From Akkermansia muciniphila (GTDB taxonomy: Bacteria; Verrucomicrobiota; Kiritimatiellia; RFP12; UBA1067), in contig CAMBQV010000002.1 in NCBI GenBank assembly GCA_945870145.1, forward strand, positions 1 through 50,053: DNA of 50,053 nt, given 5' to 3'. Of this stretch, positions 10,671 through 49,854 are shown one piece after another. Position 1 is the stretch's first letter, and every line of letters begins with the position of its first letter. A model generated the notes under the pieces. That model saw nothing but the letters and a program-made list of their open reading frames with translations, did not search any database and had not been told where the DNA came from. The position numbers and the translations under genes were made by a program.

Positions 10671-10801
10671 CGTGTGGTACCACACGAGGTAGGAGGTGTC
10701 AGGGAGGAGGGAGGAGATAAAACTCCTGCTTCCTACCTCCTACTTCCTACCTCCTACCTTCTTTGGGTGCTGATTCAACAAAGTTGAATCGTACCCAAAG
10801 A
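10671..10801 (+). other. Three stacked hairpins immediately 3' of the AraC-like gene
   Basis: Perfect palindrome cgtgtggtaccacacg at 10671-10686. Purine-word arm 10687-10716 pairs with pyrimidine-word arm 10723-10759 across the loop ataaaa. A nested hairpin at 10760-10801 pairs tctttgggt with acccaaaga and gattcaac with gttgaatc. Confidence 0.6.
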
Positions 10802-12033: not shown

Positions 12034-12953
12034 GGGAACAGCACATCCAAAAAGCGTTCGGCGACAACTGCTCCCTCGGGCGGAGAGATCGCAAGATCCG
12101 GACTGACCTCGATCACGGTGGTGCGCTTTGAAACCGGATCAATCAGAAAATCAATACCGACCAAGGGTAGCTTGAGCGCTTTTGCAATACGCTGCGACAG
12201 TTGGAGCGCGCGGCGCGGAACGCGGTCAGTGACCACTTCCACCGTGCCCCCAGTGTGATAGTTGTTTGTCAGCCGTACTTGCACACATTCACCTAGCCGA
12301 GGAACATCCTCTGGTTTACGTTTCAGCTCGGCTAGATTACGCCGAGTCTCCGCATTCCAAGGGATCTGATTACTGGGATCGCTCTTCCGACGTTCCACAT
12401 TGCGCCGAGAGATCAGCTGGCGTATGGAGTGGCGTCCATCACCCGTCACAGAAGCCGGTGAACGCTGGATCGCGGCAGCCAGTTCGCCTCCGGTCAGGAT
12501 CACACGAAGATCCTCCCCGGGCATCGTCTCCTCCAAAACCACATCTGCCTCGTAGCGACGGGCAAACTGCACCGCGCGTTTCAGTTCATCCGCTGTCCGC
12601 ACACCCATGGAGACTCCGCGTCCGCCCCATTGCATACAAGGCTTCACAACGATGGGCGCATACTGCTTTAAAAAGGCGACTGCTAACTCCGGGCAAGAGT
12701 CCTCGTAGGGAATCTGGGCTGGCACTGGAATTCGTTGGGACACAAGCCAGGCATGGCAGGCGCGCTTGTTGTTAACCAGATGATAGGTCGCCGCACCGAC
12801 AAGGTCGGTCAGAGCATTGAAACAGCGAATGGTCTTACCCTTCTGCGTGAGATCAAAAATAGGCAGGTCTGGATCAGGGTTGATGATCTTGACCTTGATG
12901 CCGCGACGCTTGGCTGCATCTGTTAAGGTTGTGGTATAGGGTGTCAGGTTCAT
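12030..12953 (-). CDS. ATP-grasp peptide ligase, cyanophycin-synthetase/RimK-like
   Basis: 307 aa. VVKPCMQWGGRGVSMG, the GDGRHSIRQLISRRN insertion, NYHTGGT and GIDFLID motifs are typical of CphA N-domain-like ATP-grasp enzymes. The start overlaps the alr stop (ATGA at 12950-12953). Confidence 0.7.
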   Translation of the reverse strand: MNLTPYTTTLTDAAKRRGIKVKIINPDPDLPIFDLTQKGKTIRCFNALTDLVGAATYHLVNNKRACHAWLVSQRIPVPAQIPYEDSCPELAVAFLKQYAPIVVKPCMQWGGRGVSMGVRTADELKRAVQFARRYEADVVLEETMPGEDLRVILTGGELAAAIQRSPASVTGDGRHSIRQLISRRNVERRKSDPSNQIPWNAETRRNLAELKRKPEDVPRLGECVQVRLTNNYHTGGTVEVVTDRVPRRALQLSQRIAKALKLPLVGIDFLIDPVSKRTTVIEVSPDLAISPPEGAVVAERFLDVLFP

Positions 12954-14074
12954 GCGTTTTGATAGCGGCGTTCCACGCGGTTTCCAAACGAGCAGATAAT
13001 CTCATACGGATGGGTTCCCTTGAGGCGAGCCCACTCCTCGACATGAATAGCTTGTTCGCCCTCGCCTCCAAGACAGATGACCTCATCGCCGATCTGCGCG
13101 GCGGCGAGTTTTTTAAGGGAGACGACGGTATAGTCCATAGAGATTCGTCCCAGGACAGGACAGGGCACGCCTCTAATCAGCATATAGCCCTTGTTTGAGA
13201 GCGCCAGCGGAAGGCCGTCCGCATAGCCAGCGGAAATGACACCCACACGCGTATCCCGTTTCAAGACACACGTATGACCGTAACCAATACCTGTGCCGGC
13301 CGGCAAATCACGGATCGCTGTCAGACGCGTCTTGAGCGTCAGGATCGGATCCAGACGCAAAGCCCGATGTCCGGCTGTGTCAAACGAGCCATGCAGGTTG
13401 ATCCCGGTGCGGATCACATTAAAAGGGGCTTGATAGGCGCACGGAAAATTGTTGATGGCATCGCTGTTCGCAATATGCCGCTTTGAAAAGGTGATGCCAG
13501 ACTGGGCCAGAAGATCCAAGAGCTTGCAAAAATCATGGACTTGGCTTTGGGTCAGAAGAGAGTCAGTATCATACGCTGAAGGGAAGTGCGAGAAGATTCC
13601 CTGACAATCGAGACCGGGCAGGGAGTGGGCCTTCCGAATCACAGACTCGGCATCGCGCATCAGGATGCCGAGACGTCCCATGCCGGTATCAATCTTAAAA
13701 TGGACGACACCGCGTTTTCCCTGCTTCACCGCCTCCTCGCTGATTCGCTTGGCGGATTCCAGATCTGTCACCGGTAAAACCACGTCCGACTCAACCATCG
13801 GTGCGATCTCCTCCGGCAGGATGCTGCTCAAAATCTGGACAGTCCCCTTCAGTGGCAGCAACTGGATCGCCTCATAAGGTTCAGCGACACCAAACTGTGT
13901 CACGCCCGCATCGCTGAGCGCACATGCGATCGGCAACACGCCAAGGCCATACGCATTGGCCTTCAAAACAGCCAAAACCTCCGCAGGCGCAACCGCCTCA
14001 CGAATCTTGCGATAGTTTGAAATCAAACGGCCGAGATCAATCTCCAGCCACACACGCCTAGGTATCGTAGTCAT
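12950..14074 (-). CDS. alr: Alanine racemase
   Basis: PLP-lysine motif VLKANAYGLG and a C-terminal beta domain. The ORF extends to 14116, but MTTIPRRVWLEIDL (ATG 14072-14074) fits the family N-terminus. Confidence 0.9.
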   Translation of the reverse strand: MTTIPRRVWLEIDLGRLISNYRKIREAVAPAEVLAVLKANAYGLGVLPIACALSDAGVTQFGVAEPYEAIQLLPLKGTVQILSSILPEEIAPMVESDVVLPVTDLESAKRISEEAVKQGKRGVVHFKIDTGMGRLGILMRDAESVIRKAHSLPGLDCQGIFSHFPSAYDTDSLLTQSQVHDFCKLLDLLAQSGITFSKRHIANSDAINNFPCAYQAPFNVIRTGINLHGSFDTAGHRALRLDPILTLKTRLTAIRDLPAGTGIGYGHTCVLKRDTRVGVISAGYADGLPLALSNKGYMLIRGVPCPVLGRISMDYTVVSLKKLAAAQIGDEVICLGGEGEQAIHVEEWARLKGTHPYEIICSFGNRVERRYQNA

Positions 14075-14093
14075 AAACAGGATAAGTATTGTA

Positions 14094-14194
14094 TTTCGGA
14101 ACCACAAAATCCACAAAAATCACAAACTTTATTTGTGGACCTCATAATTAGGGGTTCCAAAGTTTAGAAACGTGCCATGTCGCTTCTTCCTGTG
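14094..14194 (-). pseudogene. Remnant of a second GxxExxY cassette (arm plus last 19 codons)
   Basis: 101-bp unit, ~85% identical to 14195-14295. It reads KKRHGTFLNFGTPNYEVHK-stop, against KKRHGMLLNFGAPKYEVHKYIL-stop in the intact gene. The first 33 nt (tttcggaaccacaaaatccacaaaaatcacaaa) are identical in both units. Confidence 0.7.
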
Positions 14195-14630
14195 TTTCGG
14201 AACCACAAAATCCACAAAAATCACAAAATGTATTTATGAACCTCATATTTTGGGGCTCCAAAGTTCAGTAACATGCCATGCCGCTTCTTCGTGGCCTTCA
14301 AATAATGTAAAACCTGAGCCTCGTTTTCGCCCGACAGCGCTTTTGCAGCCTTTAGTTCAACAATAAACAAGTCATTAACCATTAAGTCGGCAACATAGTC
14401 GCCAACAACAAAATCATCCTCATCATAGACTTTAATTGCCACCTGCTGTTCAACAGAGCAACCAGCCTTTCTCAAACGATGTGCTAATGAATTTTCGTAA
14501 ACCTTCTCAAGAAATCCATTACCAAAATACTTATGAATCTCAAAACCTGTCTGTCTAATCACATCTGCCAATGCGTAAACATCATTCATTTTTTAACCCC
14601 TTTTGTGCCTTTTGTGGATTTTGTGGTTCC
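14195..14630 (-). mobile_element. GxxExxY gene cassette bounded by inverted word-array arms
   Basis: Arm ggaaccacaaaatccacaaaaatcacaaa at 14199-14227 pairs with ttttgtgccttttgtggattttgtggttcc at 14601-14630. The outer 21 nt are perfect reverse complements. The gene's stop codon lies inside one arm, and its ATG is 11 nt from the other. Confidence 0.5.
14221..14589 (-). CDS. GxxExxY family protein (PD-(D/E)xK-like)
   Basis: 122 aa. GNGFLEKVYENSL is the eponymous GxxExxY motif. IVELKA and the C-terminal LLNFG motif are typical of the family. Confidence 0.85.
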   Translation of the reverse strand: MNDVYALADVIRQTGFEIHKYFGNGFLEKVYENSLAHRLRKAGCSVEQQVAIKVYDEDDFVVGDYVADLMVNDLFIVELKAAKALSGENEAQVLHYLKATKKRHGMLLNFGAPKYEVHKYIL

Positions 14631-14635
14631 TCCCC

Positions 14636-16345
14636 TTAAGCCTTAAACAGGGCTCCCATCTTTTTGCCCAGCAAGAGGCTACAGCCTAAGAGCGTCACGG
14701 AGAGGAAAACCATGGCCCAGACACCGAGTGCGGCGGCGAGGAAGCGTCCGATTCCCATCAACTGGAAGAGTTCGAAGATCGTCTTGGTGATCGGATAATA
14801 TTCGACCTTCTGGGCCAGCATCACGCTGTCCGAAACTTCCAACATGCTAAAGGAGAAGACCATCAGAGCGCCTGCGATGACGTTTGCAGCGATCAACGGC
14901 AGCGTCACCCGGCGAAGAGCACAGAACGGCGACGCGCCGAGGTTGAGCGCCGCCTCCTCCAGGGTGACAGACGTTTGCTGCAGTCCAGCCACAGCTGCAC
15001 GCACCATGTAGGGCAGACGACGGATCGCGTAGGCGACAATCAGAAAGAGGGTAGGATTGACGCGGATATCGAGCAGCGCAGCCCATTGGGGATGGGCTTT
15101 CCCCCACGGTCCTGTCGCCAAGAAGCCACTCACTGAAACAAAACCAAACGCCATGACCAATCCGGGAACAGCAAGCGGAATCATGGCAAGGGCGTCCAAA
15201 ACGCCCTTGAGGCGGAGACGCGAACGGACCACGACCCACGCGACGCCTACGCCGACAACCATGTTGAAAAGAACAGCCATGGAGGAGAAGAGCAAACTGT
15301 TCTTAATCGCATTCAAGGTCATGTCATGGCCCAGCGCCTCGGAATAGTGCGAGAGTGTCCACGCCTCTGGCAGAACGGTCTTGTACCAGGAGCCCGGAAC
15401 CGAGAGGCTCGTCAGAATCACACCGGCATGGGGCAAAAGCGCCAAAATCACCACCCCGAGGAAAGGCAACACAATCAGCAAATTTCCCAAGGGGCCCACT
15501 TTTTTCTGCTGATACAAAGGCGCGGCCTTGGACTGTAACGCATAGGCCCGTCCGCCAAAGATAAAATGGCCCACAGCATACATGGTAATGCTGAAACAGA
15601 GCACCACCGTGACCAGGGCATACGGGAAGGGGGAGCCGCTCATCTCCTTGAACTCATCATAGATCTGAACTGCGACACAACGTGTATACCCCATCATCAA
15701 GGGCGTTCCAAGCTCGGTGAAGCAAGCGATAAAGACGAGCGTGCCACCTGCGAAAAGCCCTGGCGTCACTAACGGCAAGGTGATGCGCCGGAAGGTCTGC
15801 CACCCATTGGCCCCCAAATTGTGGGCGGCCTCATGCATGGCTGGATCAATGTTTGCAAAGGCCGCAGCCACATTCAAATAAAGGATCGGGTAGAAGGCGA
15901 GTGCTTGTAATACGATGACGCCAAACACGCGGGACTCCCCCAGCCAATCAATCGGACCACATCCCAGCAATGCATTCAATGCGCCGTAAGGTCCCAGAAA
16001 CTGGGTAAGGCCTATCGCTCCGACAAAGGGAGGCAACACCAGGGGAACAAGCAACAAGGCATTCAGTGTCTTCTGGCCAGCAAACGTGTACCACTGGGAA
16101 AGCCACGCGAGCGGGATGGCCACGCAAGAGGCCAAAAGGGTTGAGCCAAGCGCAAGGCAGAAGCTATTGAACAGCCCCTCTGCATAGATCGGGTTACGGA
16201 AGACCTCCAGCAGGTACGCAAAGGTCCAGCGGCCGTTCACAACAAAACCATGACTCACCACCATGAAGAGAGGCCACAGCAGAAGCCCCCCCAACAGCGC
16301 TGTCAGAAGAACAAACAAAATCCACGCTATGCGATTACTTAACAT
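14636..16345 (-). CDS. ABC transporter permease, fused double domain (iron(III)/thiamine-type)
   Basis: 569 aa, about 12 TM helices, two permease EAA-type loops (EAAHNLGANGWQTFRRITLP and EEAALNLGASPFCALRRVTLP). No ATPase or binding protein lies nearby. Confidence 0.85.
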   Translation of the reverse strand: MLSNRIAWILFVLLTALLGGLLLWPLFMVVSHGFVVNGRWTFAYLLEVFRNPIYAEGLFNSFCLALGSTLLASCVAIPLAWLSQWYTFAGQKTLNALLLVPLVLPPFVGAIGLTQFLGPYGALNALLGCGPIDWLGESRVFGVIVLQALAFYPILYLNVAAAFANIDPAMHEAAHNLGANGWQTFRRITLPLVTPGLFAGGTLVFIACFTELGTPLMMGYTRCVAVQIYDEFKEMSGSPFPYALVTVVLCFSITMYAVGHFIFGGRAYALQSKAAPLYQQKKVGPLGNLLIVLPFLGVVILALLPHAGVILTSLSVPGSWYKTVLPEAWTLSHYSEALGHDMTLNAIKNSLLFSSMAVLFNMVVGVGVAWVVVRSRLRLKGVLDALAMIPLAVPGLVMAFGFVSVSGFLATGPWGKAHPQWAALLDIRVNPTLFLIVAYAIRRLPYMVRAAVAGLQQTSVTLEEAALNLGASPFCALRRVTLPLIAANVIAGALMVFSFSMLEVSDSVMLAQKVEYYPITKTIFELFQLMGIGRFLAAALGVWAMVFLSVTLLGCSLLLGKKMGALFKA

Positions 16346-16376: not shown

Positions 16377-17186
16377 TCAGGTGAAAGGCTTGCTTAGCCA
16401 GACATTTTTCTGTTTCTTTTTGACGACAACATAACCATTACTGGCTAGACGATCTATCAGTTGATTTGAATCACCATGACACTCCATGCGAATTTCTTTA
16501 ATTCTCGCCATGCTATTTTCGTTTAACGAGGGTATAATGTCAAATTCGGCGCCTTCACAATCCATTTTTAGCAAATCAACATCGAGAATGTTATTATTAT
16601 CGAGTAAAGCATTTACAGTCATTGTTTGAACTTCCTGGTATTCTGTTTGATTACTAGTACTTTGACTGTTGTTAATCCTATTGTAAGGACTTGATGAACA
16701 AGGGAATCTTACGACATCATTGTCAATATTGCTGATTGCTTTGTTGAAAGGAATAATAACATTTTCTAAGTGATTTATTCTTATGTTTTCACAAAGAACG
16801 TTAAACGCTTCTAACGATGGCTCAATTGCATAAACTTTTTTTGCTCCTGACAGAGCCGCATATAGCGAAAATACACCAATATTAGCACCAATATCAATTA
16901 TTATACTATCCTTCTTTACACGGCCATAATCTCGTTTTAAGAAAACAACAAAGAACGTTATTAAATCGTGAGGATGAGAAGAGAATAAGATTTTCTTCTC
17001 CCCTTTTAAGTCTATATACTCAGGTGATTTGCACTGAATATAATACTTGAGGCAAATGATCGGGCGTTGGACTACGATCAACAAATAAGGAAGAGCCTTG
17101 ACAAAAGTGAACCCTTGACTTAGTAATTTCGTAATTGAAATATTTCTGTTCGCAACTCTCACCAGTGACTCCTTATTTAATGTCAA
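16377..17186 (-). CDS. FkbM-family SAM-dependent methyltransferase on an AT-rich islet
   Basis: 269 aa. IIDIGANIGVFSLYAA, AIEPS and KMDCEGAEF motifs. Local GC is about mid-30s % by eye, against mid-50s in the flanks. Confidence 0.75.
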   Translation of the reverse strand: MTLNKESLVRVANRNISITKLLSQGFTFVKALPYLLIVVQRPIICLKYYIQCKSPEYIDLKGEKKILFSSHPHDLITFFVVFLKRDYGRVKKDSIIIDIGANIGVFSLYAALSGAKKVYAIEPSLEAFNVLCENIRINHLENVIIPFNKAISNIDNDVVRFPCSSSPYNRINNSQSTSNQTEYQEVQTMTVNALLDNNNILDVDLLKMDCEGAEFDIIPSLNENSMARIKEIRMECHGDSNQLIDRLASNGYVVVKKKQKNVWLSKPFT

Positions 17187-17714: not shown

Positions 17715-17791
17715 TGGCGGGGACGACGGGATTCGAACCCGCGACCACCGGATCGACAGTCCGGTGCGCTAACCAATTGCGCCACGTCCCC
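17715..17791 (-). tRNA. tRNA-Asp (GTC), CCA encoded
   Basis: Cloverleaf parsed by hand: GGGGACG-TG-GCGC-AATTGGTTA-GCGC-A-CCGGA-CTGTCGA-TCCGG-TGGTC-GCGGG-TTCGAAT-CCCGT-CGTCCCC-G-CCA, 77 nt. Confidence 0.95.
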
Positions 17792-17875: not shown

Positions 17876-19615
17876 TTACTTACGCCAGACGGGAACGAAG
17901 AGGATGCGCGCACGCTCCTCGGTGCCATCTGCCAAAATACCCCAGAGGAGTGACCATTCGTAACGTTCTGTTTTCTCATGGCCACAGCGCAAATAGGAAG
18001 CCAGAACAGGAATACGCCAATAAGTAAAGTCTGAGCGCACATCCTTCACATGGCGCATCAGGCCGAAGCAGGTGCTGAAATGATGTCGATCCGGATTCTC
18101 TTCCACATTCAGGAGCCAGGTCCTCAGAAGGCTGAAACGATAAAAGGATGACCCTGCGTCGGCCTCCATGAGCCAGCCCCCTAAGAGATCCATTCCTGCA
18201 GAGTGACCTTCATAAGATGGAAAGCGCACAGGCCACGGGAGGTCATTCCCCCAGGAGGCCAACCAGGAGGGGCTTTCCACTGTCACAGGCGTCTTTAAAG
18301 CACGGGATGCCTGATTCTCGCAAGTTTTCTTCTCCGAGGCCTCCTCTGACCAGACCGCAGCGACTAGACGTCCCTCGCGCTGAACGCTCCAGCTCCCCTC
18401 CTTAAAGCGCTCCTTGAGATAATCTTCCATGCGCCATCGAAAAGAGCTTGCAAAACCAGGGCGTTCCCAATAGCTCAACCAGAGTCTCTTTTGCTTGCCG
18501 TCTCCACCTTTCGTGATAAATATCCGATCCCCCATCCAGCCCTTCAGAAAGTCATAATCATCCGCGGCAACAATTTTCTCCCCGCACAACAAGAGCGCGA
18601 TGCCCATCACACCGAGTGAATTGGTCGTGACCTTCTCGTACGTTCTGCCCAAAAGTGCTGGTTCCGGAGCAAAGGTAGCGGGAACAAACCCCTTAAGATA
18701 CCGACGTTCTGGGTAGAGGATCTCCGCTGTTGTCTGTGGCATCCGTCCATCATAGATGCCATTAAGCGCCTGCCATCCTGCATCGCGCCGAAGACGGTTA
18801 CAAAAGACTGCGCCATCGAGGTAGGGACGTGTCAATGCTCCCGTGATAAAAGAAGGGCACCACTTCAATTGCTCGGAGACCTCTGACATGTCAGCATCCT
18901 GCATCAACGATTCAACTCCCCATGCCCCGAAGGGCGTAGCCGTATTCAAGGGAACACCATCTAAAATGCTATCCACGCCGAGCAAAACAGCATTACCCTC
19001 GACAAAGGAGGTCAGCGCTTGTGAACGATCAAAATCTAATTCCGCCTCCTTGGTCCGCTTCGTGAGACCATAGTGTGAGTCTTCGATAGCATGACAGAAC
19101 TCATGGACGTAGACAAACCGTTCCATGCCTTGAAAACCAGCAAGGGATAGCCCATTTGTCTTCTCCTGCTCTTCTACATAGACAAGTCGACGCTCTTCAT
19201 GATCATAATATGCAGCTGCCTCCTCCTGCATAAAAGAGAGAAGCAACGCTTTTAGGGATTGCTCCTTATGTAGCACTCGGAACTGCCGCAAAAGAAGATC
19301 TGACTCCTCCAAAGAGGCCTTGTTATGCGGCTTCTCAAGGTCCTTCTCCATGGAACGCCTCAACTCCTCTTTTGTCTCTTCGCGGATGGCAACCTCGTGT
19401 TGGAGCTTCAAACCCCTCAGTTGTACAGCCATCGCCTGATACTCACGGATCTGGGCCTCCTTGTTATCGCCTTCAGAGATCTCCCTGGGGAGCATCGAGC
19501 AGCCTGTCAACCAGAGAAGAAAAAGAGAAAGCCAAGCAGTAGCAGTTGGCAGTACCAGTTGGCAGTTCGGCCACGTTATAGTTAGGAATCCGCTATGGTG
19601 CTCATTACTTTTCAT
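17876..19615 (-). CDS. Putative lipoprotein with HExxH zinc-metalloprotease motif
   Basis: 579 aa. Lipobox LWLTGC at about residue 38. VYVHEFCHAIED motif. The N-terminal codons overlap a word array (19536-19570), so the start is uncertain. Confidence 0.55.
   Translation of the reverse strand: MKSNEHHSGFLTITWPNCQLVLPTATAWLSLFLLWLTGCSMLPREISEGDNKEAQIREYQAMAVQLRGLKLQHEVAIREETKEELRRSMEKDLEKPHNKASLEESDLLLRQFRVLHKEQSLKALLLSFMQEEAAAYYDHEERRLVYVEEQEKTNGLSLAGFQGMERFVYVHEFCHAIEDSHYGLTKRTKEAELDFDRSQALTSFVEGNAVLLGVDSILDGVPLNTATPFGAWGVESLMQDADMSEVSEQLKWCPSFITGALTRPYLDGAVFCNRLRRDAGWQALNGIYDGRMPQTTAEILYPERRYLKGFVPATFAPEPALLGRTYEKVTTNSLGVMGIALLLCGEKIVAADDYDFLKGWMGDRIFITKGGDGKQKRLWLSYWERPGFASSFRWRMEDYLKERFKEGSWSVQREGRLVAAVWSEEASEKKTCENQASRALKTPVTVESPSWLASWGNDLPWPVRFPSYEGHSAGMDLLGGWLMEADAGSSFYRFSLLRTWLLNVEENPDRHHFSTCFGLMRHVKDVRSDFTYWRIPVLASYLRCGHEKTERYEWSLLWGILADGTEERARILFVPVWRK
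19536..19570. repeat. ggcagt-type word array
   Basis: gcagtagcagttggcagtaccagttggcagttcgg. It shares the exact 18-mer gcagtagcagttggcagt with 33659-33676. Confidence 0.6.
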
Positions 19616-19849: not shown

Positions 19850-19926
19850 GGGGACGTGGCGCAATTGGTTAGCGCACCGGACTGTCGATCCGGTGGTCGC
19901 GGGTTCGAATCCCGTCGTCCCCGCCA
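19850..19926 (+). tRNA. tRNA-Asp (GTC), CCA encoded
   Basis: 77 nt, the exact reverse complement of 17715-17791. Confidence 0.95.
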
Positions 19927-43888: not shown

Positions 43889-43918
43889 AATTGCACACAG
43901 CGAATACGCTTGTCCCAA

Positions 43919-44048
43919 ATTGCCTTATTGCCTGATTGCCTTATTGCGTTATTAGAGCTTCGCTTCCAAAAATCGTCAAATACTTTCGTCCTTGACCACA
44001 AGAGAATGTGATTTCTCAAATAATAAGGCAATAAGGCAATAACGCAAT
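43919..44048. repeat. Hairpin-armed element (attgcc/aataaggcaat word arms) with a degenerate core
   Basis: Left arm 43919-43953, right arm 44019-44048. attgccttattgcc pairs with ggcaataaggcaat as a perfect 14-bp stem. The element ends 4 nt before the purD stop codon. Confidence 0.6.
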
Positions 44049-44052
44049 TCTC

Positions 44053-45330
44053 TTACCGATTAAACGCGCGACGCGCGATATCGTTGCGATATTGAGCGCC
44101 CTCAAAGGTGATAAGCTTAGCCACCTCATACGCACAACCCACGGCACTCTTAAGATCAGTACCTAGCGCAGTGACGGCCAGTACGCGTCCGCCAGCGGTG
44201 ACGACCTTGCCATCCTTGAGCGATGTTCCCGCATGGAAGACGGTAGCGCCCTTAACCTGTGCGGCTGCCTCAAGTCCTTTAATCTCGTCACCCTTTTTAT
44301 ACGTGCCAGGGTATCCCCCTGCTGCCATGACAATGGTCGCGGCGGCCTCGGGACGGACCTGAATGAGGCCGTCATGCAGGATACCATCAATACACGCCTG
44401 GAGCGCAGGAATCAAGTCCCCAGCGATACGCGGCAACACAGCTTCGGTCTCGGGATCACCAAAACGCGCATTGAACTCCAGCACGTTGATACCCTTCTTG
44501 CTAATCATGAGACCCGCATAAAGCACGCCTTTGTAGACAATACCGCGCTTCTTGAGTTCACGCACCACGGGCAGGATGATCTGCTCCTTGATGTAGGGGA
44601 TAAGATCTTCGGTCACAACAGGCGCAGGCGAGTAGGCTCCCATGCCACCGGTGTTGGGACCTTGGTCATTATCAAAGATTCGCTTGTGATCTTGTGACGA
44701 GGGCAGGATTACGGTGTGCTCGCCATCGACGAGGGCCAAAATGGATGCCTCTTCGCCTTCCAGAAAATCCTCGATCAAAACTTCGGCCCCGGCCTTACCA
44801 AAAATGGCCTCCACGAGCATGGAGTTAATCGCTTCAACTGCCTCGGCGCGTGTCTGAGCAATCACGACACCTTTTCCAGCGGCCAAACCGTCGGCCTTGA
44901 TAACCACAGGTAAATCGAATTGATCCAATGCAGCAATGGCATCCGTGGCATTTGTGAACCCGAACGAACGCGCCGTCGGCACACCTGCAGCGGTCATGAC
45001 GTCTTTTGAGAAGAGCTTACTGCCCTCCATACGCGCACCTGCCTGGCACGGACCGAAAACGCGGAGCCCCTCAGCGTTAAAAGCGTCAGTGATCCCCAGG
45101 CAGAGCGGCACTTCAGGTCCGATCACGGTCAGATCAGGCCGATTAACCTTTGCCCATGCGACAAGGCCAGAAACATTTTCAGCTGAAATGGGAACAGACT
45201 CTGCAACACCAACAGTCCCCGCGTTTCCAGGTGCGCAAAACAGCGTTGGCTTACACGAATCCTGAGACAATCTCCACGCAATGGCATGCTCACGTCCGCC
45301 ACCTCCGACAACTAAAATTTTCATGGTCAT
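44053..45330 (-). CDS. purD: Phosphoribosylamine--glycine ligase
   Basis: 425 aa. KILVVGGGGREHA and ATP-grasp motifs. Confidence 0.95.
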   Translation of the reverse strand: MTMKILVVGGGGREHAIAWRLSQDSCKPTLFCAPGNAGTVGVAESVPISAENVSGLVAWAKVNRPDLTVIGPEVPLCLGITDAFNAEGLRVFGPCQAGARMEGSKLFSKDVMTAAGVPTARSFGFTNATDAIAALDQFDLPVVIKADGLAAGKGVVIAQTRAEAVEAINSMLVEAIFGKAGAEVLIEDFLEGEEASILALVDGEHTVILPSSQDHKRIFDNDQGPNTGGMGAYSPAPVVTEDLIPYIKEQIILPVVRELKKRGIVYKGVLYAGLMISKKGINVLEFNARFGDPETEAVLPRIAGDLIPALQACIDGILHDGLIQVRPEAAATIVMAAGGYPGTYKKGDEIKGLEAAAQVKGATVFHAGTSLKDGKVVTAGGRVLAVTALGTDLKSAVGCAYEVAKLITFEGAQYRNDIARRAFNR

Positions 45331-48390: not shown

Positions 48391-48864
48391 TTAAGCAATC
48401 GCGAAAGTCAACTTACCTGGGCTGAGATCAATCGAACGGATTTTACCGCCCAACGTGAACGCCTTGTTTTGCAGAAGAGTCGGAAAATGGAGCAAGAAGG
48501 AGTCCCCTGATACCGTCAACCCCGGAATCTGCGGAATCTGATTGGCAAGAGCCGAAACAATAGCCTCACCGCCACCACTGAAAAAGGAGGCTTTCACTTT
48601 GGTTAAGCGTACCACCAGAGTCTCCCCCCCATCTGCAGGGGTCAACTCACAATGTCCTTCAAAGGGAACTGGCAGAAAGCCCATCACAAATTTTCCAGAA
48701 ATAGTGATCTCCCCCTTACCAAAACAGAGGTTCACATCTTTGACATTCTTGATTTGGTTTTGGGCCTCAGCCGGCATATTCGCCTTCTGCATCTCCCAGG
48801 TCCGCTGAACCGCGGCCACGACTTCCTTGTCTGTTACTGTCAAACTCAATGTATGAATGGTCAT
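48391..48864 (-). CDS. Hypothetical protein
   Basis: 157-aa ORF with an SD-like GGAAGGA upstream. No family recognised. Confidence 0.5.
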   Translation of the reverse strand: MTIHTLSLTVTDKEVVAAVQRTWEMQKANMPAEAQNQIKNVKDVNLCFGKGEITISGKFVMGFLPVPFEGHCELTPADGGETLVVRLTKVKASFFSGGGEAIVSALANQIPQIPGLTVSGDSFLLHFPTLLQNKAFTLGGKIRSIDLSPGKLTFAIA

Positions 48865-48878
48865 TTTATTCCTTCCAC

Positions 48879-49058
48879 TGGCGTCCCATAGGTCCGCCGA
48901 GGCTGTAGCATTTTAGGCTGTAGGCTATTAGGTAAAATGGCGGAAAATGGTTTGTTTAATATCATTAATGCCATTGGTTGAAAACAAACAGAAACACATG
49001 TACTTCCTAACAGTCTACAGCCTAAAAACCTAAAAACCTGCGTCCTATGGGACGCTAA
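48879..49058. mobile_element. 180-bp MITE-like hairpin-armed element with a 14-bp target-site duplication
   Basis: Direct repeat tttattccttccac at 48865-48878 and 49059-49072. Terminal inverted repeats tggcgtcccatagg... and ...cctatgggacgctaa, plus inner ctgtagg/cctacag word arms. The core holds the 14-codon ORF MAENGLFNIINAIG-stop (48937-48981). Confidence 0.7.
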
Positions 49059-49059
49059 T

Positions 49060-49854
49060 TTATTCCTTCCACAAAAAACCCGTTAACGGGGATGAAGCAT
49101 CAGCCATGGCGCGAGGCGCACGTGGCCCTGCTTGGCGAGCAAGTTCAGCAGCCTCAACCGCTTTTGAAAAGGCGAGAGCCATCTTCACAGGATCCGCCGC
49201 AGCAGCGATCGCTGTGTTCACTAAAACGCAATCAGCCCCCATCTCAATGGCCTCCGCCACATGAGAGGGAAGTCCGAGTCCTGCGTCTACAACAACAGGC
49301 ACATTCGCATTTGCGATGATGATCTCAATCATATCCCGCGTACGGAGTCCCCTGTTCGTCCCAATCGGAGCACCCAAGGGCATCACGGCAACAACACCGA
49401 CCTCCTCAAGTCGCTTAGCCAGCACAGGGTCGGCATTCATGTAGGGAAGCACTTTGAAGCCCTCTTTCGCCAAGACCTCGGAGGCCTTGAGTGTCTCAAT
49501 CGGATCAGGGAGTAAATGATGAAGATTAGGGGTCAGTTCAAGCTTAATCCAGTCAAAGCCTCCGGCGGCACGCGCCAGACGCGCAATACGAATCGCCTCC
49601 TCTGCCGTGCGTGCCCCGCTCGTGTTCGGCACGATCACGACCTTATTCGGATCGAGTTTGGAGATAAGCGGATCGCCTTCGGGATTTTTATCCAAATCAA
49701 CACGACGAAGCGCCACCGTCACCAATTCACAGCCTGAGACCTCGATTGCCTGGCGCATCAGCTCGTGCGAACCAAATTTTCCGGTTCCAATAAAGAGTCG
49801 CGACCGGAATTCGCGACCTGCAATGATAAGTGGTTTCATGAAGGGCAATATCAT
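49060..49854 (-). CDS. thiG: Thiazole synthase
   Basis: 264 aa. LFIGTGKF, the catalytic-lysine region WIKLE, and VMPLGAPIG. Alternative start MKPLII at 49839. Confidence 0.93.

Follow-up and report, generated by a model that had tools for sequence, protein, structure and literature searches.

An arm-flanked GxxExxY nuclease-like gene between permease and alanine racemase genes, and a candidate class of compact DNA element

Within a 50,053-nt stretch of DNA from Akkermansia muciniphila (contig CAMBQV010000002.1 of assembly GCA_945870145.1, positions 1 to 50,053; hereafter the window), a gene for a 122-aa GxxExxY protein lies between an ABC transporter permease gene and the alanine racemase gene alr, framed by a pair of inverted-repeat arms. 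We found insertion, loss and solo-arm polymorphism of this cassette of gene and arms at the permease-alr site, together with strong purifying selection on both the protein and the arm cores, and inverted arms recur at GxxExxY genes across many phyla. GxxExxY cassettes appear to be a widespread class of compact genetic element; the literature searched, whose coverage was incomplete and left curated family notes outside it, contains no description of the element or its arms. The reading to which we lean, tentatively, is that the cassette is a compact DNA element comparable to insertion sequences (IS), to miniature inverted-repeat transposable elements (MITEs) or to repetitive extragenic palindromes and their associated tyrosine transposases (REP-RAYT), with the arms as putative cis sites for its own nuclease. 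At the window locus, the best reading is of an ancient, vertically inherited and essentially immobile element.

The permease-alr junction

All features at the junction lie on the minus strand. The permease gene (14636..16345, with two BPD_transp_1 domains) ends in a TAA at 14636-14638, 5 nt ahead of the 5′ arm (14601..14630), which in sense orientation reads GGAAC-CACAAAAT-CCACAAAAGG-CACAAAA, i.e. three CRCAAAR units after a GGAAC terminus where the family consensus has TTARC. An 11-nt spacer, GGGGTTAAAAA (14590..14600), carries a Shine-Dalgarno-like GGGG (GGAG or AGGA in the orthologs) ahead of the ATG of the GxxExxY gene (14221..14589; 122 aa, a predicted minimal PD-(D/E)XK nuclease core), whose TGA stop codon (14221-14223) falls inside the proximal 3′ arm (14199..14228, TTTTGTGATTTTTGTGGATTTTGTGGTTCC in sense orientation). 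This is followed by an 8-nt junction and the remnant of an open reading frame (ORF) tail of 19 codons plus a stop (14127..14198), both part of a distal 101-bp unit, by a second 3′ arm copy (14098..14126) whose 29 nt are identical to the proximal copy, by a 23-nt leader (14075..14097), and by alr itself (12950..14074, ATG at 14072-14074). A preliminary description of this DNA had reported an ORF within inverted arms that are perfect over their outer 21 nt, an ATG 11 nt from one arm, a stop inside the other and the permease stop 5 nt away; every one of these features is present. The arms at 14199-14228 and 14601-14630 are 30 nt each and complementary at 28 of 30 positions. The window has exactly three copies of their outer 21 nt, GGAACCACAAAATCCACAAAA (at 14098, 14199 and 14610), and none was present in 100 shuffled windows.

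Relatives with the permease-alr neighbourhood were gathered from other metagenomes through exact-protein look-ups and a scan for alr, and they form two clades, A (the window, L002 and L087) and B (L088, L004/L003, L005/L006 and L089). The cassette with matching arms is present at five loci (the window, L002, L004, L005 and L088). In L089, whose alr product shows 82% amino acid identity, and 95% to that of the cassette-bearing L088, the junction is empty and reads ...AAAGGGTAA-T-ATGAGT... (...GGGTAA-T-ATG...). At the same point L088 carries a 467-nt insert made up of 9 nt, the arm-ORF-arm unit and 23 nt, and the 23-nt leader, missing from the empty site, arrived with the insert. In L087, both of whose flanking proteins are 95% identical to those of the window, the 5′ arm and the ORF are gone, and a solo 3′ arm, TTTTGTGATTTTTGTGGATTTTGTGGTTCC, is retained with the leader directly ahead of alr. 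The structure is thus an insertion between permease and alr, as the preliminary description had proposed, and the sequences indicate that the cassette has been lost at least twice at this site. An 8-nt TAAACAGG repeat around the window cassette was considered as a target-site duplication and is unsupported by the empty-site comparison.

In L138, which is related more distantly, the permease-alr junction is occupied by a different insert (230-1180, ∼950 nt). It contains another ORF, a large palindrome belonging to a second repeat family (CGTAGGGCAACGCCCTACG, AAGGCTGAAAGCCTTG) and, shortly before alr, an arm of CRCAAAR type. At L090 (4030-4660), the CRCAAAR and second repeat families are nested together.

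Synonymous divergence (dS) between the two clades is saturated in all three genes (1.48 for the GxxExxY gene, 1.70 for alr and 1.66 for the permease), and because the cassette value is like that of its flanks, the cassette has co-diverged with them; lateral transfer of the cassette between the clades was dismissed on the same grounds. Non-synonymous divergence (dN) between the clades is 0.035 for the GxxExxY gene versus 0.12-0.15 for the flanking genes, and the dN/dS of ∼0.02 indicates purifying selection on the GxxExxY protein stronger than that on alr. Within clades, synonymous sites of the cassette gene have diverged roughly half as far (dS 0.21-0.30) as those of the flanks (0.42-0.63), which could reflect either synonymous-site constraint or some cassette gene flow. 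The arms are conserved as well. The proximal 3′ arm is the same in L002, L004, L088 and L087, its non-coding part is unchanged across the clades save for one substitution in L005, and the 3′ arm together with GAAATACAATACT is the same in the window, L002 and L087 despite a synonymous divergence of 0.27-0.5. Changes in the 5′ arm within the window's clade fall mostly in the spacers between units, without compensation, and leave the cores fixed. The identity of 3′ arm cores between clades with saturated synonymous sites supports the suggestion of the preliminary description that the arms are constrained independently of their cargo, and points to constraint on them as sequence motifs.

Beside the intact gene, that description had also noted a 101-bp unit consisting of the same arm and a diverged 19-codon tail, and such a unit is indeed there. 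Identity between the tandem units 14090-14190 and 14191-14291 is 87%; of their 13 mismatches, 11 fall within the 63-nt coding tail, whereas the 29-nt arm has none. This contrast within the window alone is not significant (Fisher p = 0.12), so the case for arm constraint rests on the ortholog comparison above. The remnant translates to KKRHGTFLNFGTPNYEVHK followed by a stop, and its tail matches the resident tail at 52 of 64 positions and that of L088 at 50 of 64. The duplication is found in the window and L002 only, being missing from L004, L005 and L088, and its recurrence in L002, an independent metagenome contig, shows that it is no assembly artefact. The remnant is equally well read as a lineage-specific 101-bp tandem duplication (ORF tail, arm and 8 nt) or as the relic of a second cassette.

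The cassette differs from its surroundings in composition, with a G+C content of ∼40% against ∼56% in the flanks. Despite the long residence of the cassette, G+C at third codon positions remains 0.39, versus 0.62-0.68 in the flanking genes, in all four lineages. Single-strand deamination was considered as a source of the AT-richness and dropped, since the depletion of C at third positions is seen in the window gene and not family-wide.

Arms across the GxxExxY family

To place the window cassette in its family, we used an alignment of 33 homologues to collect 80 GxxExxY loci from one-genome-per-species contigs of Verrucomicrobiota, Planctomycetota, Acidobacteriota, Hydrogenedentota, Nitrospirota, Chloroflexota and other phyla. 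To call arms, the 90 nt preceding the start codon were compared, with gaps allowed, to the 120 nt surrounding the stop codon, and scores had to exceed the 99th percentile of shuffles. Significant inverted arms were identified at 62 of 82 loci, namely 57 of 77 independent loci and the five of the window's clade. Other GxxExxY genes therefore do carry arms of their own, and the permease-alr spacer does vary among relatives, so the refuting condition set by the preliminary description did not hold. The arm consensus is a TTARC terminus followed by about three tandem CRCAAAR units at 9-10-nt spacing, with TTARC|CRCAAAR common to both cassette ends, and the strict arm motif occurs 134 times in 458 kb and not at all in shuffles. 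Even in an isolate of Bernardetia (Bacteroidota), whose GxxExxY protein has 33% identity, motif arms (AACACAGAGA...CCACAGAGA and TCTCTGTG...TCTCTGTGTT) surround the gene, whose neighbours are ade and a mannose-1-phosphate guanylyltransferase gene. At 49 loci the 5′ side bears the CRCAAAR arm and at 11 the orientation is reversed; in the reversed cases inspected the orientation is due to complete gene-less hairpins flanking the gene.

An arm is more similar to its partner in the cassette than to the arms of other cassettes (mean Smith-Waterman scores of 40.5 within the same cassette, 24.6 between cassettes and 14.3 for shuffled arms), and partner arms co-vary. Across 19 well-anchored arm pairs, 93.6% of cells were paired, versus 83.2% in shuffles; double changes were seen in 17 of 26 arm pairs, amounting to 65 cells versus 22 in shuffles, and none of 500 shuffles reached the observed pairing or double-change values.

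The cassettes are also positioned in a consistent way. The upstream gene is co-directional at 33 of 42 loci (p = 3e-4), with a median distance of 7 nt from its stop to the arm, and at seven of 33 loci the host stop codon is itself the TAA or TAG of the arm's TTARC terminus. In most loci the cassette's own start codon comes 0-17 nt past the 5′ arm, which leaves no room for an internal promoter, and its stop lies in or near the 3′ arm; ORFs that lack the stop read through the arm to give forms of 147-151 aa. At 76 of 76 loci the G+C content of the cassette gene is below that of its flanks, by 9.8 points on average.

Loops between neighbouring strict arms are bimodal, being either 18-92 nt (14 gene-less hairpins, spread over 10 of the 80 loci) or 378-557 nt (20 gene-bearing), with none in between. 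Gene-less motif hairpins also occur away from any GxxExxY gene, in L110 and L090, two loci selected for alr. At L032 (2020-3530), mini-cassettes with internal deletions are arrayed in tandem with a period of ∼227 nt and retain both arms together with the ATG and an ELKA...stop remnant. The only ORFs found as other cargo within CRCAAAR arms were antisense or spurious. Two further loci show unusual arrangements of the motif. L042 (964-1059) has 12 tandem TTTGYG units, and L169 (230-2240) has two GxxExxY cassettes 1 kb apart around a phosphoribosyltransferase gene, which differ in arm subtype (CACAAAA versus CGCAAAGAA), the second gene being immediately preceded by two gene-less hairpins (layout X-x, X-x, gene, x).

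We also looked for arms around genes of the four-helix-bundle family, using as a probe a consensus-like sequence validated against TIGR02436 (170 bits) and analysing only real database proteins. No four-helix-bundle gene is present in the window, and a motif regular expression found none in the ∼950 kb of fetched loci. The contexts examined (dprA-4HB-topA, epimerase-4HB-epimerase and 4HB-leuA, where 4HB is the four-helix-bundle gene) show the gene wedged between co-directional housekeeping genes, and three of the four genes examined have inverted arms of their own (p ≤ 0.015); the preliminary description had named this family for the same check. Their arm units differ from CRCAAAR, being short tandem GCTAGC, TCAGC and ATGAGTG types. 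One such site is occupied in L190 (380-840) and reduced in L188 (690-810) to an internally deleted remnant that keeps a 5′ arm of 7-nt ATGAGTG units. In this small sample the architecture appears to be common to both cargo families, with the arm sequence tracking the cargo family, which would fit recognition by each protein of its own arms.

The nuclease and the role of the arms

The window ORF matches TIGR04256 (117.1 bits, cut-off 35) and, as its only Pfam match, PF13366 (PDDEXK_3; 110.9 bits, cut-off 22). This family numbers at least 7872 cluster representatives at E ≤ 1e-10 from many phyla, and the sole statement on GxxExxY function that we found in the literature is 'unknown'. The AlphaFold model (predicted local distance difference test score, pLDDT, of 96) is a minimal alpha-alpha-beta-beta-beta-alpha-beta-beta PD-(D/E)XK core without a separate DNA-binding domain. 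The nearest solved folds are those of Cas4 SSO0001, LHK-Exo, MGME1 and lambda exonuclease (template-modelling, TM, scores of ∼0.5-0.6), with tRNA-splicing endonucleases and Holliday-junction resolvases ranked lower; a sequence search of the PDB returned no solved relative. Because D68, E78 and K80, as well as the signature residues G25, E28 and Y31, are invariant among the 33 sequences, the protein is likely an active metal-dependent nuclease. PADLOC and PHROGs gave weak Cas4-like similarity or nothing, leaving a known defence system unsupported.

In the view that we favour, the arms are recognised as sequence motifs in DNA, or on both strands symmetrically, since mismatches show no G.U bias, the motif crosses phyla, spacer changes are uncompensated and the solo arm of L087 is preserved. 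The window locus would then be an old insertion of a cassette of ∼470 bp that later underwent the 101-bp local duplication. Its arms would act much as transposon ends or REP sequences do, as cis sites recognised by the cassette's nuclease; we infer that the protein binds or cuts its own arms and that this drives insertion. Such an element, mobile now or formerly, would depend on read-through transcription of the host operon and would decay into gene-less miniature hairpins and solo arms. The long RNA stem would be a consequence rather than a selected function, although it may limit translation or create processing sites, and concerted evolution, or selection for DNA able to fold, might keep up the co-variation of the arms.

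Several observations weigh against this DNA-level reading. At the single comparable junction (L088 occupied, L089 empty) there is no target-site duplication, and the inserted DNA reaches 9 nt and 23 nt past the arms, which are not the exact ends of the insert. No recent movement was seen: the exact proteins P0087 and P0034 occur on 10-12 contigs and always in one genomic context, and GxxExxY paralogues that share a genome have diverged deeply. None of 50,697 phage records contains the gene, and among 72,556 plasmid records only eight do, every one typed as non-mobilizable and most of them at least hundreds of kb in size; we rejected phages and plasmids as evident vehicles for this reason. A gene at a fixed site with a dN/dS of ∼0.02 looks more like one that benefits the host, or has been domesticated, than like an active selfish gene, and placement tight behind host stops, with the ATG abutting the arm, fits a logic of RNA or translation just as well. 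Finally, we know of no PD-(D/E)XK protein of such size that acts alone as a recombinase.

A bolder form of the idea, which we think unlikely, is that GxxExxY cassettes (and, by analogy, four-helix-bundle cassettes) are distinct, minimal, autonomous elements of ∼460 bp that insert and excise themselves or process their own hairpin. The ∼120-aa nuclease would act on its own folded, tandem-unit arms, inserting at host stops and excising, and operons would survive the insertion because the cassette brings a replacement stop, the TTAR terminus, as well as a leader directed outward. Alternatively, it might be a maturase-like nuclease processing its own hairpin; host dependence on each copy would then explain the dN/dS of ∼0.02 at fixed sites. 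Were the cassettes autonomous in this sense, a large orphan family would gain a function, and the presence of related ORFs inside rRNA intervening sequences (IVSs) would be explained.

The preliminary description had likened the structure to just such an rRNA IVS, and a module working at the RNA level is a serious, if doubtful, alternative to the DNA element. Here the stem of ∼30 bp in the read-through transcript would be cut by RNase III or by the encoded nuclease acting as a maturase, freeing a closed-loop monocistronic mRNA and separating the host messages, so that insertion into an operon is tolerated; the stem might also occlude the ATG and hold nuclease synthesis low. The stem-loop part of the earlier comparison stands, as the predicted minimum free energy structure of the transcript (-171 kcal/mol, z = -5.2) pairs the 5′ arm with a 3′ arm, the distal one, and the arms co-vary strongly. 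The co-directional placement just past an upstream stop and the closeness of start and stop codons to the arms would suit such a module, as would the similarly wedged, arm-flanked four-helix-bundle genes, whose family is known inside 23S rRNA IVSs, and the tRNA-splicing endonucleases among the weaker fold matches. The mismatches lend the RNA reading no specific support. If pairing in RNA were under selection, G.U mismatches on the sense strand should persist and A.C mismatches be removed, yet, in a test of limited power given few mismatches, the 49 cassettes with a CRCAAAR arm on the 5′ side have 40 G.U against 56 A.C or C.A mismatches (p = 0.13, in the wrong direction), and the curated arm set has ∼18 against ∼17. 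Nor does a structural RNase III site need CRCAAAR units and a TTARC terminus held in common across phyla, and it leaves unaccounted for both the uncompensated variation of the 5′ arm spacer in the window's clade and the perfect conservation of the 3′ arm in L087, which has no partner there. Rfam returned only tRNAs or noise, for the window and 20 loci at the gathering threshold and for the cassette at an E-value threshold, and the catalytic triad is of the metal-dependent D-E-K type, with DNases as the best fold matches.

A domesticated regulatory module strikes us as improbable, though parts of the junction invite it. In such a module the arms would be operator-like arrays of three sites per side, bound by the GxxExxY protein or a host factor and setting the expression of cassette and neighbour, with inverted symmetry mirroring that of the protein, the 3′ arm and 23-nt leader serving as promoter and leader of alr, and no present mobility. 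The distal arm and leader contain TTGTGG-17 nt-TACAAT (-35 at 14111-14116, -10 at 14088-14093; read by eye), a possible outward promoter for alr, and the pattern TTGTGG-17 nt-(T/C/A)A(C/T)AAT is kept in all lineages, with A2 and T6 of the -10 hexamer constant and TACAAT, CACAAT and AATAAT as the variants ahead of alr; a scan with the sigma-70 consensus, however, did not call it as a promoter. The identity of the 3′ arm and GAAATACAATACT within clade A, the survival of the solo arm of L087 immediately before alr, arms of CRCAAAR type close ahead of alr in the unrelated lineages L138 and L110, and strong selection on the protein at a fixed site all agree with regulation. Left unexplained are the AT-richness at every locus compared, the gene-less miniatures and tandem arrays, the empty and occupied alleles and the consistent position behind an upstream stop, and a 122-aa nuclease core without a separate DNA-binding domain is an awkward regulator. 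A fortuitous low-complexity inverted repeat or an assembly error, with the remnant misassembled, might be suspected from A/C-rich arms in metagenome assemblies; its probability is negligible, being refuted for practical purposes by the absence of the 21-mer from shuffles, by the recurrence of the structure, duplication included, in independent assemblies from other samples, and by the motif at 57 of 77 independent loci, isolate genomes included.

For PF13366 / TIGR04256, these results add a conserved, co-varying cis element for most members, a fixed position behind host stops, a compositional signature and empty, occupied and solo-arm alleles, turning an anonymous gene family into a defined genetic element and posing a biochemically testable question, i.e. 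whether the protein acts on its own arms. They provide an architectural link between GxxExxY cassettes and the four-helix-bundle genes known from rRNA IVSs, which suggests a common way for small selfish or domesticated genes to live in host transcription units. The arms also account for recurrent spurious ORFs and the read-through C-terminal extensions of ∼25 aa in the 147-151-aa forms, and for contig breaks in assemblies of Acidobacteria and of the Planctomycetes-Verrucomicrobia-Chlamydiae (PVC) group.

Other repeats in the window and comparison with known systems

Elsewhere in the window there are further hairpins. An imperfect palindrome of 180 bp (48865-49072), between thiG (49060-49854, minus strand) and a 157-aa ORF (48391-48864, minus strand), has outer arms GGCGTCCCATAGG / CCTATGGGACGC, inner arms composed of TAGGCTG units and, on either side, a direct repeat of 14 nt, TTTATTCCTTCCAC; it resembles an insertion in which duplication of the target kept intact both the stop upstream and the ribosome-binding site downstream. 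A hairpin at 43918-44049, with arms of four tandem ATTGCCTT-type units and a 76-nt loop, occupies the space between convergent genes, only 3 nt away from the purD (44053-45330, minus strand) stop codon, and matches the cassette arms in architecture with a different unit sequence. A third (10680-10766), 10 nt past the stop of an AraC-family regulator gene, has a GGAGG-rich 5′ arm and a 3′ arm of CCTAC/CCTCC repeats in 7-nt units. Finally, two inverted tRNA-Asp(GTC) genes (17715-17791, minus strand, and 19850-19926, plus strand; 84-nt arms, 99% complementary), one with a tRNA-Pro(CGG) gene beside it, flank a 579-aa ORF (17876-19615, minus strand) and adjoin an island of 33-38% G+C with an FkbM-type methyltransferase (16377-17186).

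Among known systems, the IVSs of 23S rRNA (Leptospira, Coxiella; S23p, PF05635 / TIGR02436) resemble the cassette in having an ORF of ∼120 aa within inverted repeats that would form a long stem, inserted in a transcribed region and tolerated there. Unlike them, the cassette sits between two protein genes in a window without rRNA, its cargo is a PD-(D/E)XK nuclease rather than PF05635, and its arms carry a phylum-spanning motif without the wobble signature of RNA-level selection. An IVS with an ORF is described as a selfish element (PMC4990558). Integron cassettes (attC) share with the GxxExxY cassette a co-oriented small ORF that has no promoter room and relies on upstream transcription, an imperfect inverted-repeat site with co-varying halves, and tandem arrangements with shared repeats. 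They differ in having one attC at the 3′ end of the ORF, where GxxExxY repeats bracket it, and in lying in one array, where GxxExxY cassettes occur singly at scattered sites behind housekeeping genes; neither an integrase nor attI was seen, although the whole window was not searched for integrase.

Homing endonucleases of the PD-(D/E)XK type, of which I-Ssp6803I is an example, are likewise small nuclease genes with presence/absence polymorphism at one precise site. The cassette stands outside any intron or intein and has its own inverted arms, and because cassettes sit behind many different host genes there is no single gene-specific target of the kind that homing endonucleases have. With IS and MITEs (e.g. 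Correia or ERIC type, the latter named for enterobacterial repetitive intergenic consensus sequences), the cassette shares a compact inverted repeat-ORF-inverted repeat layout whose right end contains the stop codon, repeated motifs in sub-terminal positions, internal deletion to miniature hairpins, AT-richness relative to the host and insertion in operon spacers. It departs from IS in lacking a target-site duplication at the single testable junction, a known transposase family and near-identical copies in different contexts, and in being only ∼460 bp long.

RAYT systems have a vertically inherited, conserved nuclease-type gene that is flanked by inverted motif copies and does not itself move recently, with gene-less hairpin doublets (REPINs) elsewhere. 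Compared with these, the cassette enzyme is PD-(D/E)XK rather than an HUH/Y1 (IS200-like) transposase, GxxExxY genes form multi-copy paralogous families, each with private arm variants, each arm consists of three tandem 9-10-nt units, and gene-less hairpins of the cassette motif are not in large excess over gene-bearing ones in the sampled sequence. The resemblance lies in the overall arrangement, for the cassette gene too is vertically inherited under purifying selection, with no recent movement seen, and is flanked by an inverted motif that also forms gene-less hairpins elsewhere.

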